DNA of 45,686 nt from a virus (lineage: Duplodnaviria; Heunggongvirae; Uroviricota; Caudoviricetes): the IMG/VR virus record IMGVR_UViG_2663763339_000005, positions 1 through 45,686 of that record; one strand, 5' to 3'. The position numbers and the translations under genes are program-made. Shown one piece after another: positions 4,772 to 18,118 of the stretch. Under the pieces are notes generated by a model. The model was given only the letters and a program-made list of their open reading frames with translations. It was not told the DNA's origin and made no database searches. Every line of letters begins with the position of its first letter. Positions within the stretch are counted from its first letter, which is position 1.

Positions 4772-4964
4772 AACTAAGCCGCCTCGTTGAAGCGACTAAG
4801 GTATGAAATGTTGAGTTGATTTCAGCTGGTCACACCGACGTTCACGCGTCCGTTTCACCCCTCGCACTCCCCGAAGCCTGCTGAAATTCAAACTGCGGAT
4901 CTAAGCGGTCATCGCAACGGTGAATCAGGTGGTTGCCGTATCGTTGTGTTGTTGCGATGAACTT

Positions 4965-4993
4965 ATTTAAAACTATAGTTGTTTTACCGTCAA
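4965..4993 (-). promoter_or_regulatory. Putative early-left promoter pL with overlapping operators
   Basis: On minus strand TTGACG-17 nt-TTAAAT; palindromes AACTATAGTT (4971-4980) and AACAACAAAAGTTGTT (4991-5007) overlap the -35 region and spacer; mirrors pR architecture. Confidence 0.5.
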
Positions 4994-5134
4994 CAACAAA
5001 AGTTGTTTTATTGGTTGTTTTAGATATAACTGGTTGTATTTAGGATGGATTTATTTTGTGACTTGAATCGCATAGCGATAACTGAAGCGAGGTTATGGTG
5101 GTTTTTTTAACGGTGTGTGTGATGAGGGGAGGGC

Positions 5135-5165
5135 AAAAGAAAACCCGGCACGGTGACCGGGATTC
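5135..5165 (-). terminator. Rho-independent terminator downstream of repressor gene
   Basis: Minus-strand hairpin CCCGGTCACCGTGCCGGG followed by TTTTCTTTT. Confidence 0.6.
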
Positions 5166-5282
5166 TTACGCCGTTAGGTAAAGATATTATTGCGGTGGCT
5201 TAATATTACTACCTAGAGCAAAGATAGGAATTAGTTCTTTACTGAATGAGCACAATGCCCAGTTGATAATTTTTAATTGGTA

Positions 5283-5972
5283 CTACCCATGCTTCCTATA
5301 TGTCTGCGGCATGCTCCCAATAACCTTACCGAAGATGAACACCCGGTTCATCTCGTCTTTCTCGATCGGGTCCCACGGTGAGTAGCTTTTGTTATCAGAG
5401 ATGACCAGCAGCTTATCCTTCATCATTTGCAGGCGCTTTACATGGGCTGTGTCGTCGTACAGAAACGCATAGATACCATCACCGTCGAAAGATTTAACTG
5501 TGATATCAACGAACAGCAGATCACCTGGTTCGATCGTTCCTGACATGCTGTCACCACGCACGTTAATGATGCGGATATTTTCCGCCTTCCTACCATCGAA
5601 CATATGACGAGCATCGTCAAACGAGTACTCAACCGAGCGTAGAACTTCTACAAACTCACGGTTGATGACTCCCGGCCCAGCACTGACTTCTATATCAAGA
5701 ACGTCAATCTTGAAGTATTTGGAATGGCTGACAGTTGATTGTATTGGTTGCACTGTACTGTCTGACATATTTCCAACGCCAGAAGATAACCATTCTGCGC
5801 GCACACCCAAAGCGTTCGCGATCTCCACGATTTTAGTTGTTTGATTAGCTTTCCCTGTTTCGATTTTCTGAATAGCAGCTTGGCTAACCCCGACCAAATC
5901 CCCAAGCGCCTTTTGTGTAAGGCCTCGCGCTAATCTGGCTTCTTTAAGTCTTTCTGAGAGTGTTGTTTTCAT
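5283..5972 (-). CDS. cI-like prophage repressor (HTH_XRE + LexA-like S24 peptidase domain)
   Basis: ORF 5283..6038; start at internal Met MKTTLSERLKEARLARGLTQKALGDLVGVSQAAIQKIE (HTH); C-terminal domain with GDSM (Ser) and VKRL (Lys) autocleavage motifs; divergent from cro-like gene. Confidence 0.85.
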   Translation of the reverse strand: MKTTLSERLKEARLARGLTQKALGDLVGVSQAAIQKIETGKANQTTKIVEIANALGVRAEWLSSGVGNMSDSTVQPIQSTVSHSKYFKIDVLDIEVSAGPGVINREFVEVLRSVEYSFDDARHMFDGRKAENIRIINVRGDSMSGTIEPGDLLFVDITVKSFDGDGIYAFLYDDTAHVKRLQMMKDKLLVISDNKSYSPWDPIEKDEMNRVFIFGKVIGSMPQTYRKHG

Positions 5973-6307: not shown

Positions 6308-6376
6308 ATTTCCATTTCACGCTCTTTAACAATAAGCAATCAACTTAACAGTCAATTCAAACTAAAGGAGTCAATT

Positions 6377-8947: not shown

Positions 8948-8997
8948 TTTCAAACTGTAGTACAATTCTCTCCAGTTTGAACAGGAAAGAATATGCT

Positions 8998-9330
8998 ATG
9001 AACCCTTATATTTATCTTGGTGGTGCAATACTTGCAGAGGTCATTGGTACAACCTTAATGAAGTTTTCAGAAGGTTTTACACGGTTATGGCCATCTGTTG
9101 GTACAATTATTTGTTATTGTGCATCATTCTGGTTATTAGCTCAGACGCTGGCTTATATTCCTACAGGGATTGCTTATGCTATCTGGTCAGGAGTCGGTAT
9201 TGTCCTGATTAGCTTACTGTCATGGGGATTTTTCGGCCAACGGCTGGACCTGCCAGCCATTATAGGCATGATGTTGATTTGTGCCGGTGTGTTGGTTATT
9301 AATTTATTGTCACGAAGCACACCACATTAA
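8998..9330 (+). CDS. emrE: Small multidrug resistance efflux protein EmrE
   Basis: 110 aa from internal Met MNPYIYLGGAILAEVIGTTLMKFSEGFTRLWPS...; four TM helices; known moron of DLP12-type prophages. Confidence 0.92.
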   Translation: MNPYIYLGGAILAEVIGTTLMKFSEGFTRLWPSVGTIICYCASFWLLAQTLAYIPTGIAYAIWSGVGIVLISLLSWGFFGQRLDLPAIIGMMLICAGVLVINLLSRSTPH

Positions 9331-11543: not shown

Positions 11544-11747
11544 GAGTATAGCCGCCAGCCATGAGTGTTGTATTAAAACAAGGATGTCTATATATGGGAT
11601 AGCGAGAGTATGAATATCAGTTATTTTGAGAGTTAACTGATTGTGAAATTAGTTTTTTTCACAAACGAGTGGGGTTACTATGATGAGTGTTCTAATGCAT
11701 AGGGAACACCTAATTTTTTCAATGAATTCAAATTGATAGGATCAAAA

Positions 11748-12677
11748 ATGGCACAACAGAGAACTACCTCCCTCAGATCCATACCTTTAGACTTAGATGT
11801 TAAGCAAGAGGCTGTCATTAACGGTATAGAAATGGGGGTACTCGATAACGGAATTCCGTACCTTACTCAGAATGGGTTGGCAAATGTTTGTGGTGTTCAG
11901 CGTTTGCGAATCAAGGAAATTACCGATGAGTGGGCTCAATCCGTTGAGAACGGTATTTTCAAAAAAGGAAGAATGACTTTTATTGGTACATATCTTCTTA
12001 ATGAAGGTTTTACAGATGAAAAACTTTATATACCAATAATTCGAAATGGTGTTGAGTACCATGCTTATCCAGATGTTGTATGCATGGCTATACTTGAATA
12101 CTATGCCTTTGAAGCAAAACAAGCAGAAAGTGAGACTGCAATTAGATCTTACAGAGAGCTTGCTAAAAAAGGCCTCAAGACATTTATATACGAGGCGCTA
12201 AAATATCAACCGGAGGACCCGTGGAGGCATTACCATGACAGAGTATCTTTATTAAAAGATAAGGGAACCATACCTGATGGGTATTTCATTATATTTAATG
12301 AAATTGCAGGTATGATGGTAGATCTCATCAATGCTGGATTAGCGATTAATCAGCATACCGTACCTGATGGCAGTGTTGGTTCTTGCTGGGCGCGTCACTG
12401 GAAAGCAAAGGGGTTAGCAACAGAATTTGGAGAAAGAGTAGACTGTGAGCATTATTACCCTGAAGATTTTCTTCAGGCAAGTTCCAATCCTCAGATCATT
12501 AATGCCTATCCTGATTCTGCATTGTCAGAGTTTCGTAGATGGTTTAAGCATGAATATTTAACCACAAAGTTCCCACCGTATATTCTTAAAAAATCAAACG
12601 TGCTTCCTGGTGGTACAGAAGATGCTAATCGTCTGATAGAAGCTTTCAAAAAATCAGAGCTAGAAAATAAACCATAA
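11748..12677 (+). CDS. Hypothetical phage moron protein (possible antirepressor-like N-terminal domain)
   Basis: ORF 11733..12677; start at Met 11748 preceded by AGGA; ~309 aa; AT-rich; occupies the slot where K-12 DLP12 has ybcL/ybcM; function unassigned. Confidence 0.45.
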   Translation: MAQQRTTSLRSIPLDLDVKQEAVINGIEMGVLDNGIPYLTQNGLANVCGVQRLRIKEITDEWAQSVENGIFKKGRMTFIGTYLLNEGFTDEKLYIPIIRNGVEYHAYPDVVCMAILEYYAFEAKQAESETAIRSYRELAKKGLKTFIYEALKYQPEDPWRHYHDRVSLLKDKGTIPDGYFIIFNEIAGMMVDLINAGLAINQHTVPDGSVGSCWARHWKAKGLATEFGERVDCEHYYPEDFLQASSNPQIINAYPDSALSEFRRWFKHEYLTTKFPPYILKKSNVLPGGTEDANRLIEAFKKSELENKP

Positions 12678-14363: not shown

Positions 14364-14747
14364 ATGCGTGATATTCAGATGGTTCTTGAGCGTTGGGGAG
14401 CGTGGGCGGCTAATAATCATGAAGATGTGACCTGGTCGTCCATTGCCGCCGGTTTTAAGGGATTAATTACTTCAAAAGTAAAATCTCGCCCGCAATGTTG
14501 TGACGATGACGCGATGATTATTTGCGGGTGCATGGCCCGTCTGAAAAAGAACAACAGCGATTTGCACGATTTATTAGTAGATTATTATGTAGTCGGTATG
14601 ACATTCATGTCACTGGCAGGTAAGCATTGCTGCTCTGATGGTTATATCGGGAAAAGGTTACAGAAGGCTGAGGGCATAATTGAAGGGATGTTAATGGCAT
14701 TAGATATCCGGTTAGAGATGGATATCGTTGTTAATAACTCTAATTAA
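14364..14747 (+). CDS. quuD: Late-gene antiterminator Q (QuuD type)
   Basis: ORF 14349..14747; start at [22 protein letters not shown]...; cysteine cluster [12 protein letters not shown]; position upstream of lysis cassette. Confidence 0.9.
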
Positions 14748-14885
14748 TATGCCAATTGTTTACTAAAAATTATTAAAAATGGGGCGTTGAGACGCCCCCA
14801 AAAATAAAGGGTAATATATAACAGAAGGTTTATATAGTTAGAAGCAAGGTTGTGCTTCTAAAGGAAGTGGCTTGAGGGAGCCACT

Positions 14886-14925
14886 TATATGTTGGGGAGG
14901 CAACGCCTCCCGCAACATATCTTTT
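14886..14925. terminator. Bidirectional rho-independent terminator between Q and convergent nmpC
   Basis: Long palindrome ATATGTTGGGGAGGCAACGCCTCCCGCAACATAT followed by CTTTTTCG; a second hairpin GGGGCGTTGAGACGCCCC lies at about 14780-14797. Confidence 0.7.
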
Positions 14926-14936
14926 TCGTAATCAGA

Positions 14937-16034
14937 TTAGAACTGGTAAACCAGACCTACAGCAACGATGTCATCAGTGCTTACACCGAGTGCTTTAGTG
15001 AAGTCATTTTTGTCAAGCAGGTTGATTTTGTAATCAACGAAAGTAGACATATTTTTGTTGAAGTAATAGGTTGCACCTACATCAACATATTTGACTAAGT
15101 CCTGATCGCCCCATACTCCAAGATCTTTACCTTTAGATTGCAGGTAAGCAACGGACGGACGCAGACCGAAATCGAACTGATATTGTGCAACAGCTTCGAA
15201 GTTTTGGGCTTTATTAGCAACGAAGTGATCAGCAAATACAGTCATATTCTGGGTTTCAGAATAGGTAGTGGCCAGGTAAATGTTGTTAGCGTCATATTTC
15301 AGACCTGCGGCCCAAACTTCTGCATTTTTACCGGAAGCAAATACTTCAGGAAGAACTTTCCCTGCATTAACTTGAGTGTCGGTACGATCAGATTTCGCAT
15401 AAGTTGCACCGATACCGAATCCTTCGTATTCATAGGTAGCAGAGAAACCGAAGCCATCACCGTTACCTTCAGTGTAGTTATCGAAATCGCTACGATCGTT
15501 TTTGCCTTGGTACTGAGCAGCAAAGTTCAGACCATCAACCAGACCAAAGAAGTCGTTGTTACGATAGGTTGCAACACCAGTGGTGCGACCAGTCATGAAC
15601 ACATCTGTTTGGGTCCAGGTATCGCCACCGAATTCTGGCAGAACGTCAGTCCACGCACCGATGTCGTATGCTACACCGTAGTTACGGCCGTAATCGATTG
15701 AGCCGTAGTCACCGAATTTCAGGCCTGCAAATGCAAGACGGGTTTTGTCTTTGGAGGAACCTTGAGATTCAGCGCGGTTGCCTTTGAATTCATATTCCCA
15801 CTGACCGAAACCAGTCAGTTGATCGTTGATTTGGGTTTCACCTTTGAAGCCAAGACGGGCATAAGTAGTATCACCATCATCTGCATCATTAGAGGAGAAG
15901 TAGTGCTTGGCATTAACTTTCCCGTACAGATCCAGCTTGTTACTGTCTTTATTATAAATTTCAGCTGCCTGAGCAGACATCGCCATCAGTACTGATGCAG
16001 CTACAGCAGAAATTGCCACTGTTAATTTTTTCAT
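14937..16034 (-). CDS. nmpC: Outer membrane porin NmpC (OmpC/OmpF family), intact
   Basis: 365 aa with signal peptide [23 protein letters not shown] and C-terminal ...VGLVYQF beta-barrel terminus; no IS interruption. Confidence 0.93.
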
Positions 16035-16622
16035 CGTGAGCCCTTTTTTTTGAACTATTATTAAAAAATGATGTCACTGCGCGATAAATATTCATCTAAT
16101 CAATGTGATTATTTCAAGATGTAAGTTTTAGTTTCTCATTTAATTTGTGAAGTAGATCTCTATTTTTATCTGAACTTTTTCTATCGAAACCTATTTATGG
16201 CTCTTATTTGAACAAAAATAAACCTATTAGCTAATTTATATTAATGGTTGTTATTTATGGAGGTTCTATAATTCGGCAGTTTAATTTAAATCAACTAAAA
16301 ATAACGTCTGAAATTATTTATTGGTTATTTGTTGAGGTTTTCTTATGTATTTGTGGTGGTGTTTTGAACACTCGGTAGCATTCTCATAAATATCATTCAG
16401 TGGTTTACGTACGTAAAAAATTGGTTATGCTGTTAAGAGTGGTTACTTCGTCACACAGCTTAAACCCGCCGTCGAGCTGGTTTTTCCATTTTTTGAGTCT
16501 CGATATTAGCTGATAACTCAATACCTGAGTTATTCACTGACTCCGAGTCTGTTACGTTTCTGCTTTTTTGCGATACGTTGTATTCCCTCAATTTACACCC
16601 GCTTTGTCTGCGAGGTGGGGTT

Positions 16623-16838
16623 ATGAAATCCATGGATAAGTTAACAACGGGTGTCGCCTATGGCACCTCAGCAGGTAGTGCCGGTTACTGGTTTTTACAG
16701 CTGCTCGATAAAGTCACGCCCTCACAGTGGGCAGCAATAGGTGTGCTGGGTAGCCTGGTATTTGGCCTGCTGACGTACCTGACAAACCTTTATTTCAAGA
16801 TTAAAGAAGATAAGCGCAAGGCTGCGAGAGGTGAATAA
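16623..16838 (+). CDS. essD: Holin, phage-21 S-type (pinholin), EssD
   Basis: ORF 16578..16838; start at [28 protein letters not shown]...; two TM segments; immediately upstream of endolysin. Confidence 0.88.
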
Positions 16839-17335
16839 TGCCTCCATCATTACGAAAAGCCGTTGCTGCTGCTATTGGTGGCGGAGCAATTGCTATAGCA
16901 TCAGTGTTAATTACTGGCCCAAGTGGTAACGATGGTCTGGAAGGTGTCAGCTACATACCATACAAAGATATTGTTGGTGTATGGACTGTATGTCACGGGC
17001 ATACAGGAAAAGACATCATGCTCGGTAAAACGTATACCAAAGCAGAATGCAAAGCCCTCCTGAATAAAGACCTTGCCACGGTCGCCAGACAAATTAACCC
17101 GTACATCAAAGTCGATATACCGGAAACAATGCGCGGCGCTCTTTACTCATTCGTTTACAACGTGGGTGCTGGCAATTTCAGAACATCGACGCTTCTTCGC
17201 AAAATAAACCAGGGCGATATCAAAGGCGCATGTGATCAGCTACGTCGCTGGACATATGCTGGCGGTAAGCAATGGAAAGGCCTGATGACTCGTCGTGAGA
17301 TTGAGCGTGAAGTCTGTTTGTGGGGGCAACAGTGA
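16838..17335 (+). CDS. rrrD: SAR endolysin (lysozyme), RrrD
   Basis: 165 aa; N-terminal signal-anchor-release segment ([20 protein letters not shown]) plus lysozyme fold; recalled as matching RrrD/phage 21 R. Confidence 0.92.
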
Positions 17336-17793
17336 GCAGAGTAACCGCGATTATATCCGCTCTGATTATCTGCATCATCGTCAGCCTGTCATGGGCGGTC
17401 AATCATTACCGTGATAACGCAATCGCCTACAAAGCCCAGCGCGACAAAAATGCCAGAGAACTGAAGCTAGCGAACGCGGCAATTACTGACATGCAGATGC
17501 GTCAGCGTGATGTTGCTGCGCTCGATGCAAAATACACGAAGGAGTTAGCTGATGCGAAAGCTGAAAATGATGCTCTGCGTGATGATGTTGCCGCTGGTCG
17601 TCGTCGGTTGCACATCAAAGCAGTCTGTCAGTCAGTGCGTGAAGCCACCACGGCCTCCGGCGTGGATAATGCAGCCTCCCCCCGACTGGCAGACACCGCT
17701 GAACGGGATTATTTCACCCTCAGAGAGAGGCTGATCACTATGCAAAAACAACTGGAAGGAACCCAGAAGTATATTAATGAGCAGTGCAGATAG
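17320..17793 (+). CDS. rzpD: i-spanin Rz (RzpD)
   Basis: N-terminal TM helix and coiled-coil periplasmic domain; GTG-initiated (17320 or 17332), overlapping endolysin stop. Confidence 0.88.
17552..17734 (+). CDS. rzoD: o-spanin Rz1 (RzoD), lipoprotein embedded in Rz in +1 frame
   Basis: 60 aa with lipobox LVVVGC and proline-rich mature region, fully nested in rz. Confidence 0.88.
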
Positions 17794-17824: not shown

Positions 17825-18118
17825 TTATTTTGAGCAATACACACGCGCTTCCAGCGGAGTATAAATGCCTAAAGTAATAAAACCGAGCAATCCATTTACG
17901 AATGTTTGCTGGGTTTCTGTTTTAACAACATTTTCTGCGCCGCCACAAATTTTGGCTGCATCGACAGTTTTCTTCTGCCCAATTCCCGAAACGAAGAAAT
18001 GATGGGTGATGGTTTCCTTTGGTGTTACTGCTGTCGGTTTGTTTCCAACAGTAAACGTCTGTTGAGCACATCCTGTAATAAGCATTGCCAGAGCGGCAGA
18101 AAACAACATTTTTTTCAT
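17825..18118 (-). CDS. borD: Bor lipoprotein (serum resistance-associated)
   Basis: ORF 17825..18166; start at MKKMLFSAALAMLITGCAQQ (lipobox); recalled as matching lambda Bor. Confidence 0.9.
   Translation of the reverse strand: MKKMLFSAALAMLITGCAQQTFTVGNKPTAVTPKETITHHFFVSGIGQKKTVDAAKICGGAENVVKTETQQTFVNGLLGFITLGIYTPLEARVYCSK

Follow-up and report, generated by a model that had tools for sequence, protein, structure and literature searches.

The virus record IMGVR_UViG_2663763339_000005 of IMG/VR (Caudoviricetes; 45,686 nucleotides (nt), all of them analysed here and called the window) is a complete lambdoid prophage resembling DLP12 of Escherichia coli K-12. It carries the porin gene nmpC, also called lc, in antisense orientation between the gene for the late antiterminator Q and the lysis genes (Table 1). 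We analysed this locus following an earlier note made from the sequence, which took the porin gene for intact, unlike its IS5-disrupted K-12 copy, and proposed that late transcripts starting near Q had to traverse it. The first part was borne out. The porin is encoded by one uninterrupted open reading frame (ORF) lying antisense between Q and the holin gene, and in K-12 MG1655, as in phage 434B, the same gene is split by IS5 after codon 346. The protein covers the Pfam profile Porin_1 (PF00267) from end to end (positions 1-337 of 337, E 1e-156), and its residues 24-365 match the solved structures of OmpC, OmpK36, OmpF, and PhoE (E 1e-135 to 1e-110). It ends in ...VYQF, that is, with the C-terminal aromatic residue of barrel assembly, and it starts with a cleavable signal peptide of 23 codons, annotated at the same place in the phage PA-2 record. 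With 363 of 365 residues identical to Lc of PA-2 (the differences being H99R and F154V) and the same position between Q and S, it is the Lc/NmpC phage porin.

Table 1. Features of the Q-porin-lysis region, in coordinates of the window
Feature	Position	Strand	Basis
Late antiterminator Q (QuuD type, Q21/Q933W family), 127 aa	14364-14747	+	PF06530, E 4e-53
nmpC 3' untranslated region, predicted IpeX small RNA, 167 nt, four stem-loops and terminator hairpin	14770-14936	-	Identity, fold, size
Intrinsic terminator for + strand transcripts leaving Q	14887-14926	+	Hairpin 14887-14920, then CUUUUU
Intact porin nmpC/lc, 365 aa, 23-aa signal peptide	14937-16034	-	Single uninterrupted ORF
Divergent control region, AT-rich (26-30% G+C), with nmpC promoter and putative sigma-E promoter	16035-16403		Composition, mapping
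Predicted late promoter pR': -35 TTTACG 16404-16409, -10 TATGCT 16426-16431, predicted start A 16438, box TAAGAGTGGTTAC 16434-16446	16404-16446	+	Homology
Leader hairpin with U-runs, counterpart of the first terminator-like hairpin after 933W-type pR', weakened here	16456-16494	+	Fold
S21-type pinholin/antiholin, dual start ATG 16623 and 16632 (MKSM)	16623-16838	+	PF04971, E 3.5e-35
Signal-arrest-release (SAR) endolysin (lysozyme)	16838-17335	+	PF00959; coordinates from the SE11 annotation
Spanin Rz	17332-17793	+	PF03245; coordinates from the SE11 annotation
Spanin Rz1	17552-17734	+	Coordinates from the SE11 annotation
bor/iss lipoprotein gene, second antisense passenger, after the lysis cassette	17825-18118	-	PF06291, E 1.7e-30; iss in SE11

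The segment made of Q, porin, and holin was found in 2395 of 5426 complete E. coli genomes (about 44%) and in 36 phage records, counting hits that covered at least 80% of the query. Separately deposited isolates, for example mEp332, Turner, the PhiR series, and Perceval, were among these phage records. An identical Q was present at 80 IMG/VR loci, and wherever the sequence reached far enough, the porin gene stood between Q and the holin gene. The porin ORF was intact at all 76 loci that gave a whole-gene alignment, two further loci with split or incomplete porin alignments being counted apart, and it came as a 365-aa and a 360-aa allele, which share about 91% identity. Hence, an intact nmpC is the rule and the IS5 disruption of K-12 the exception.

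The Q protein of the window matches the solved Q21 structures 6p18 and 6jnx (E 7.6e-7) and is 78% identical to Q of a 933W-type Stx2 phage; the identical gene of E. coli SE11 is annotated quuD by RefSeq. When we used the 246 bp preceding the holin gene as a BLAST query in a search space of 2.3 Gb, positions 16403-16485 matched hundreds of Stx-phage records in a segment located where the Q gene ends (76-77% over 82 nt, E 2e-7). In 933W-type Stx-phage records, this segment is annotated as the late promoter pR'. The window and the 933W-type promoter have in common the -35 hexamer TTTACG, the spacer motif CGTAAAAA, the start-site box TAAGAGTGGTTAC, and the first hairpin of the leader. They differ in the -10 hexamer, which is TATGCT in the window versus TATCAT in the 933W-type phages. 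To anchor the start, we turned to strain Sakai, whose primary pR' transcript was found to be 258 nt long by differential RNA sequencing and Term-seq (PMC7547250). A start placed 7 nt past the -10 hexamer of TTTACG-N16-TATCAT in Sakai is separated from the end of the tR' U-run by exactly 258 nt, a check made through transcript length on version.2 of the record, the StxS paper having used version.1. This geometry indicated that the promoter annotated in 933W-type phages is the one that has been mapped experimentally. By homology, pR' of the window would therefore lie at 16404-16431, with a start at about 16438, past the porin gene and divergent from the nmpC promoter.

The conservation of this element was consistent with such a role. 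Among 54 distinct variants of the spacer between nmpC and the holin gene, positions 16414-16453 were invariant and 16454-16473 nearly so (0.999), while the surrounding spacer varied, which makes the pR' element the most conserved stretch of that spacer. The box TAAGAGTGGTTAC was found once in the window, and it was absent from phage 21, which has another Q and the same holin type. This indicated that the element travels with the type of Q and not with the type of holin. The homologous promoter starts 1657 bp past the Q stop codon, hence not immediately downstream of Q, and the same layout is seen in relatives that carry other cargo between Q and a pR'-like element. In the Shigella phage POCJ13 (L006, 4317-5045), this cargo is a 594-nt sense ORF ahead of stx1, and in PhiR40_1 (L007, 3255-3847), a 447-nt antisense ORF. 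From these comparisons, the gap between Q and pR' looks like a recurrent cargo slot in phages with a QuuD-like Q. Our literature search returned no mention of nmpC together with a late promoter.

The spacer between Q and nmpC (14748-14936, 189 bp) is 100% identical to that of K-12 DLP12 and of PA-2, and the earlier note had seen in it a strong bidirectional terminator. We found two separate terminators instead, each working one way. The hairpin 14887-14920 is very stable on the + strand (-21.3 kcal/mol, z -5.4, none of 200 shuffled sequences being equally stable), and the terminator that it forms ends 11 nt short of the nmpC stop codon. On the - strand, the same hairpin is followed by AUAAGUGG, without a U-run. 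Transcripts of that strand have a terminator of their own, as morons do, in a hairpin at 14798-14781 (-13.9 kcal/mol) followed by AUUUUU, which ends about 23 nt past the Q stop codon. The spacer is thus made of two crossed one-way terminators, not of one bidirectional terminator. A 69-aa ORF at 14889-15098 (+) bears the label 'ORF1' in PA-2 and is annotated as a hypothetical protein in the 434B record. It begins within the terminator hairpin and overlaps the 3' end of nmpC in antisense, and we doubt that it is a gene.

As - strand RNA, the whole spacer (-63.1 kcal/mol, z -9.0) is predicted to form four stem-loops and, after them, the terminator hairpin. The 25 spacer variants that we compared changed it in loops or in a bulge, or kept G-U pairing, and the distance from the nmpC stop codon to the - strand U-run is 167 nt. 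IpeX is a small RNA with a published size of 167 nt, made as part of the porin transcript (PMC12197685), and it lowers the levels of OmpC and OmpF (PMC12197685; PMC5069750). Because the spacer is structured, identical to K-12, and measures 167 nt from stop codon to U-run, it is best identified as the 3' untranslated region of nmpC and IpeX, with predicted exact ends. We take IpeX to be placed directly after the nmpC stop codon. Rfam returned nothing relevant, whether the region was scanned permissively or the whole window with gathering thresholds, IpeX having no Rfam model, and the RefSeq record of K-12 has no ipeX annotation. Since the two terminators cross, the Q mRNA would, at its 3' end, match IpeX in perfect complementarity for about 159 nt. 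Should the cell make both RNAs, pairing followed by cleavage could occur, which would link lysogenic conversion to the lytic switch at the RNA level, an idea that we put forward as quite unlikely. Were it true, the unit of porin and IpeX would damp leaky Q expression in lysogens, and after induction, IpeX would be titrated by the surge of Q mRNA. That link would be other than the switch of the earlier note.

The control region between nmpC and pR' contains the site that PA-2 annotates for CRP, which maps to 16143-16163. The start site of the nmpC promoter, PnmpC, was mapped in K-12 by 5' rapid amplification of cDNA ends, within 199-210 bp of the start codon (PMC11677980), and our sigma-70 scan of 16035-16403 gave no consensus match. 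A K-12 reporter of the lysis operon has been described as '-121 to +650', its +1 being taken from an RpoE study. The forward primer of this reporter maps to 15962-15981, which puts the published +1 near 16083, an anchoring by the forward primer only since the reverse primer is unmatched in the window within 3 mismatches. A GAACT-N-TCACT motif at 16050-16083 (+), read by eye, fits a sigma-E promoter. Together, these elements suggest that there is probably a second, stress-responsive (sigma-E) rightward promoter upstream of pR'. Incidentally, some 50 nt separate a +1 near 16083 from the start codon of nmpC, which is read from the other strand, and RNA started there would overlap the nmpC mRNA at its 5' end. 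A second 'CRP site' of PA-2 maps to 16438-16458 and coincides with the first 21 nt of the predicted pR' transcript and with the conserved leader hairpin. Only one CRP half-site (TCACA) is matched there, and a better reading of this GenBank feature is the beginning of the late transcript.

The leader between pR' and the holin gene was then compared between alleles. The minimum free energy of its first hairpin was -8.4 kcal/mol in the window (z +0.7), where the stem has a C-U mismatch; the corresponding values of the K-12 allele and the 933W type were -14.1 and -21.9. Position 16478 is responsible for the mismatch. It is G in 50 of 78 loci, the K-12 type with an intact GC stem, and T in 27 of the 78, including the window, the T being found in PA-2 as well. 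The T allele always occurred with a 16-bp insertion containing a U-run, CTGCTTTTTTGCGATA, at 16559-16574 in the leader. This association could reflect compensation or simply shared ancestry.

Collectively, these elements make it probable, in our view, that the region holds a self-contained porin cassette for lysogenic conversion between Q and pR' and that late transcription diverges from the porin. In such an arrangement, the cassette would be a leftward unit with a sigma-70 promoter of its own, dependent on CRP, followed by the porin gene and by a structured 3' untranslated region that has its own terminator and from which the small RNA IpeX would be derived. It would have been inserted between the Q gene and pR', the target of Q, rather than between pR' and the lysis genes, so that pR' would stand back to back with the porin promoter across the AT-rich spacer. 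The early operon would be shut before the porin gene by the + strand terminator, a function suggested by its structure and position. Q, produced from the early operon, would act in trans 1.66 kb away, and the late transcript would begin about 185 nt ahead of the holin gene. With pR' beyond nmpC, late transcription would diverge from the porin and never cross it. A divergent start so close to the holin gene would remove the Q-dependent switch between conversion and lysis that had been proposed for this prophage.

Several points weigh against this transcription map. The assignment of pR' rests on homology, and its -10 hexamer, TATGCT, is weaker than that of the 933W type and falls below the threshold of the promoter scan. 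Our search of the 185-nt leader of this allele gave no convincing candidate for tR', and the map therefore does not account for the silencing of the late genes in the lysogen. Finally, any early transcription leaking past the Q terminator could proceed through nmpC in antisense.

Spelled out in the terms of lambda, the model of the earlier note would have pR' directly after Q, 14887-14926 acting as tR', and a Q-modified polymerase crossing antisense nmpC to reach the holin gene, so that transcriptional interference would silence the porin during lytic growth. In textbooks, pR' does adjoin Q, phage 21 has precisely that layout, a strong + strand terminator lies past Q, and -10-like AT-rich hexamers can be picked out by eye at 14812-14838. 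However, these hexamers are weak, and the promoter scan found no + strand promoter-like site in the 189 bp at 14748-14936. Neither do these 189 bp resemble any pR' of the Q21/933W family, the sole homologue being the element past nmpC, with similarity extending over 16404-16485, and the relatives with other cargo show the same displaced element. In addition, an rrnB terminator placed in the nmpC/quuD spacer of K-12 had no measurable effect on IS5 transposition (PMC11677980). This transposition is an indirect read-out of rightward transcription into IS5 within nmpC, and as DLP12 lacks its early promoters, the evidence is weak. Taken together, we regard a pR' adjoining Q as very improbable, and the claim that late transcripts must pass a terminator and then the antisense porin gene, a stretch of 1.1 kb, is not supported. 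A different route for antisense transcription would be offered by early pR transcripts if these were made resistant to termination by an N-like or put-like mechanism. They would pass the Q terminator and enter nmpC in antisense, and would meet porin transcription head-on in the early part of the lytic cycle, with no need for Q. The rightward early operon ends with Q, towards which nmpC converges, and in lambda, N-modified pR transcripts are known to continue beyond Q. An exact boxA, CGCTCTTTA, is present at 6320-6328, 13 nt past the cro stop codon. Yet boxA-like matches occur in the window at chance frequency, and apart from this one exact boxA, our search for nut or put elements revealed no inverted repeat and an unremarkable fold of the pL leader. 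There is no N-like ORF between kil and cI (4772-5283), no boxB hairpin was evident, no Rfam family was matched, and the terminator past Q is strong. Such read-through appears rather unlikely to us.

The remaining alternative concerns the porin itself, which might be intact and yet effectively silent ('quiescent'), with no conversion phenotype in this host. The nmpC gene of E. coli B is reportedly called a quiescent porin gene in the title of a 1998 paper by Prilipov et al., and the region upstream of the gene is very AT-rich, as is typical of silenced foreign DNA. In contrast, the ORF is intact in every sampled prophage with a whole-gene alignment, which argues for selection, and published data point to expression. 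In the LF82 lysogen, NmpC of the prophage Perceval was transcribed 10-fold over the local background (PMC9928086), and Perceval carries the same module at 94-95% identity. The nmpC genes of CFT073 were expressed at 37 C, as both mRNA and protein (PMC12890032). PnmpC is an active sigma-70 promoter giving detectable transcripts in K-12 (PMC11677980). We therefore consider a silent porin unlikely, and the expectation that the porin is expressed in lysogens is plausible in view of these near-identical prophages (PMC9928086, PMC12890032, PMC11677980).

The arrangement that we favor, a porin cassette between Q and a displaced pR', can be set beside known systems. The closest is lc of PA-2 (GenBank J02580), whose record aligns to 14710-17525 at 97.9%, that is, over 2.8 kb of collinear sequence with the same spacer, orientation, and lysis genes. 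There is essentially no difference in this region, except that what the record calls a CRP site is taken here as the start of the pR' transcript. DLP12 of K-12 shows the same order of genes (ybcN-ninE-ybcO-rusA-ylcG-quuD-nmpC-essD-rrrD-rzpD-borD), and its pR' segment is 98.9% identical to that of the window. It differs by the IS5-split nmpC, by the G at 16478 in place of T, by the lack of the 16 bp in the leader, and by the loss of the early region and structural genes, whereas the prophage of the window is complete. In the 933W-type Stx phages, which have the StxS leader, pR' overlaps the Q stop codon and the cargo (tRNAs, stx) follows downstream in sense. In the window, by contrast, Q and pR' are kept apart by a 1.66-kb antisense cassette, a homologue of the +258 terminator is missing, and the holin gene comes 185 nt on. 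Phage 21 shares with the window the Q family and the holin, endolysin, spanin, and bor genes. However, its pR', Q-binding element, and terminator come directly after Q and are followed by two tRNA genes, it has no porin, and its promoter segment cannot be aligned with pR' of the window. The lambda morons bor and lom are similar in being autonomous passengers expressed by the prophage at the boundaries of phage operons, and bor is antisense in the window as well. Unlike them, the porin cassette would also yield a trans-acting small RNA, and it would sit between a regulator gene and its target promoter. As expected for a moron, the porin is absent between Q and S in phage 21 and in the 933W-type phages, and PhiR40_1 and POCJ13 have other genes there.

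As for the rest of the prophage, it carries int, exo/bet/gam, kil, cI, cro, a cII-like gene, O, P, and ren, followed by ybcK, ybcN, ninE, ybcO, rusA, ylcG, Q, the lysis genes, terminase, and the head and tail genes. The dual start of the holin gene has its counterpart in S21-71/S21-68 as annotated in phage 21. The 2.6 kb around nmpC are 100% identical to E. coli SE11, where RefSeq places the prophage beside intD, and the prophage shared by SE11 and the window is the full-length counterpart of the cryptic prophage DLP12. Two more genes were noticed. A 314-aa protein of the BstA abortive-infection (anti-phage defence) family (phrog_6287, E 1.9e-136) is encoded at 11733-12677 (+), between the ybcK recombinase gene and the ybcN/ninB-like gene, a position held by ybcL/ybcM in K-12 DLP12 and by other small genes in SE11. 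Directly 3' of ren, at 8997-9330 (+), lies a further passenger, a small multidrug efflux gene of the EmrE/QacE type, also present in DLP12 and SE11.

Work of the 1980s to 2000s has already described the porin cassette, where it lies, and its small RNA, and the module is widespread. Our analysis brings nothing new on the cassette itself, and its main value is the corrected transcription map. As an example of textbook lysogenic conversion, the cassette would alter the permeability of the outer membrane and the sensitivity of the host to phages and colicins, and through IpeX it would lower the host's own major porins. For annotators, the correction would be that the late promoter of this type of prophage lies 1.66 kb from Q, past an antisense passenger. 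Models in which late transcripts cross everything between Q and S would thus be wrong for this prophage family.

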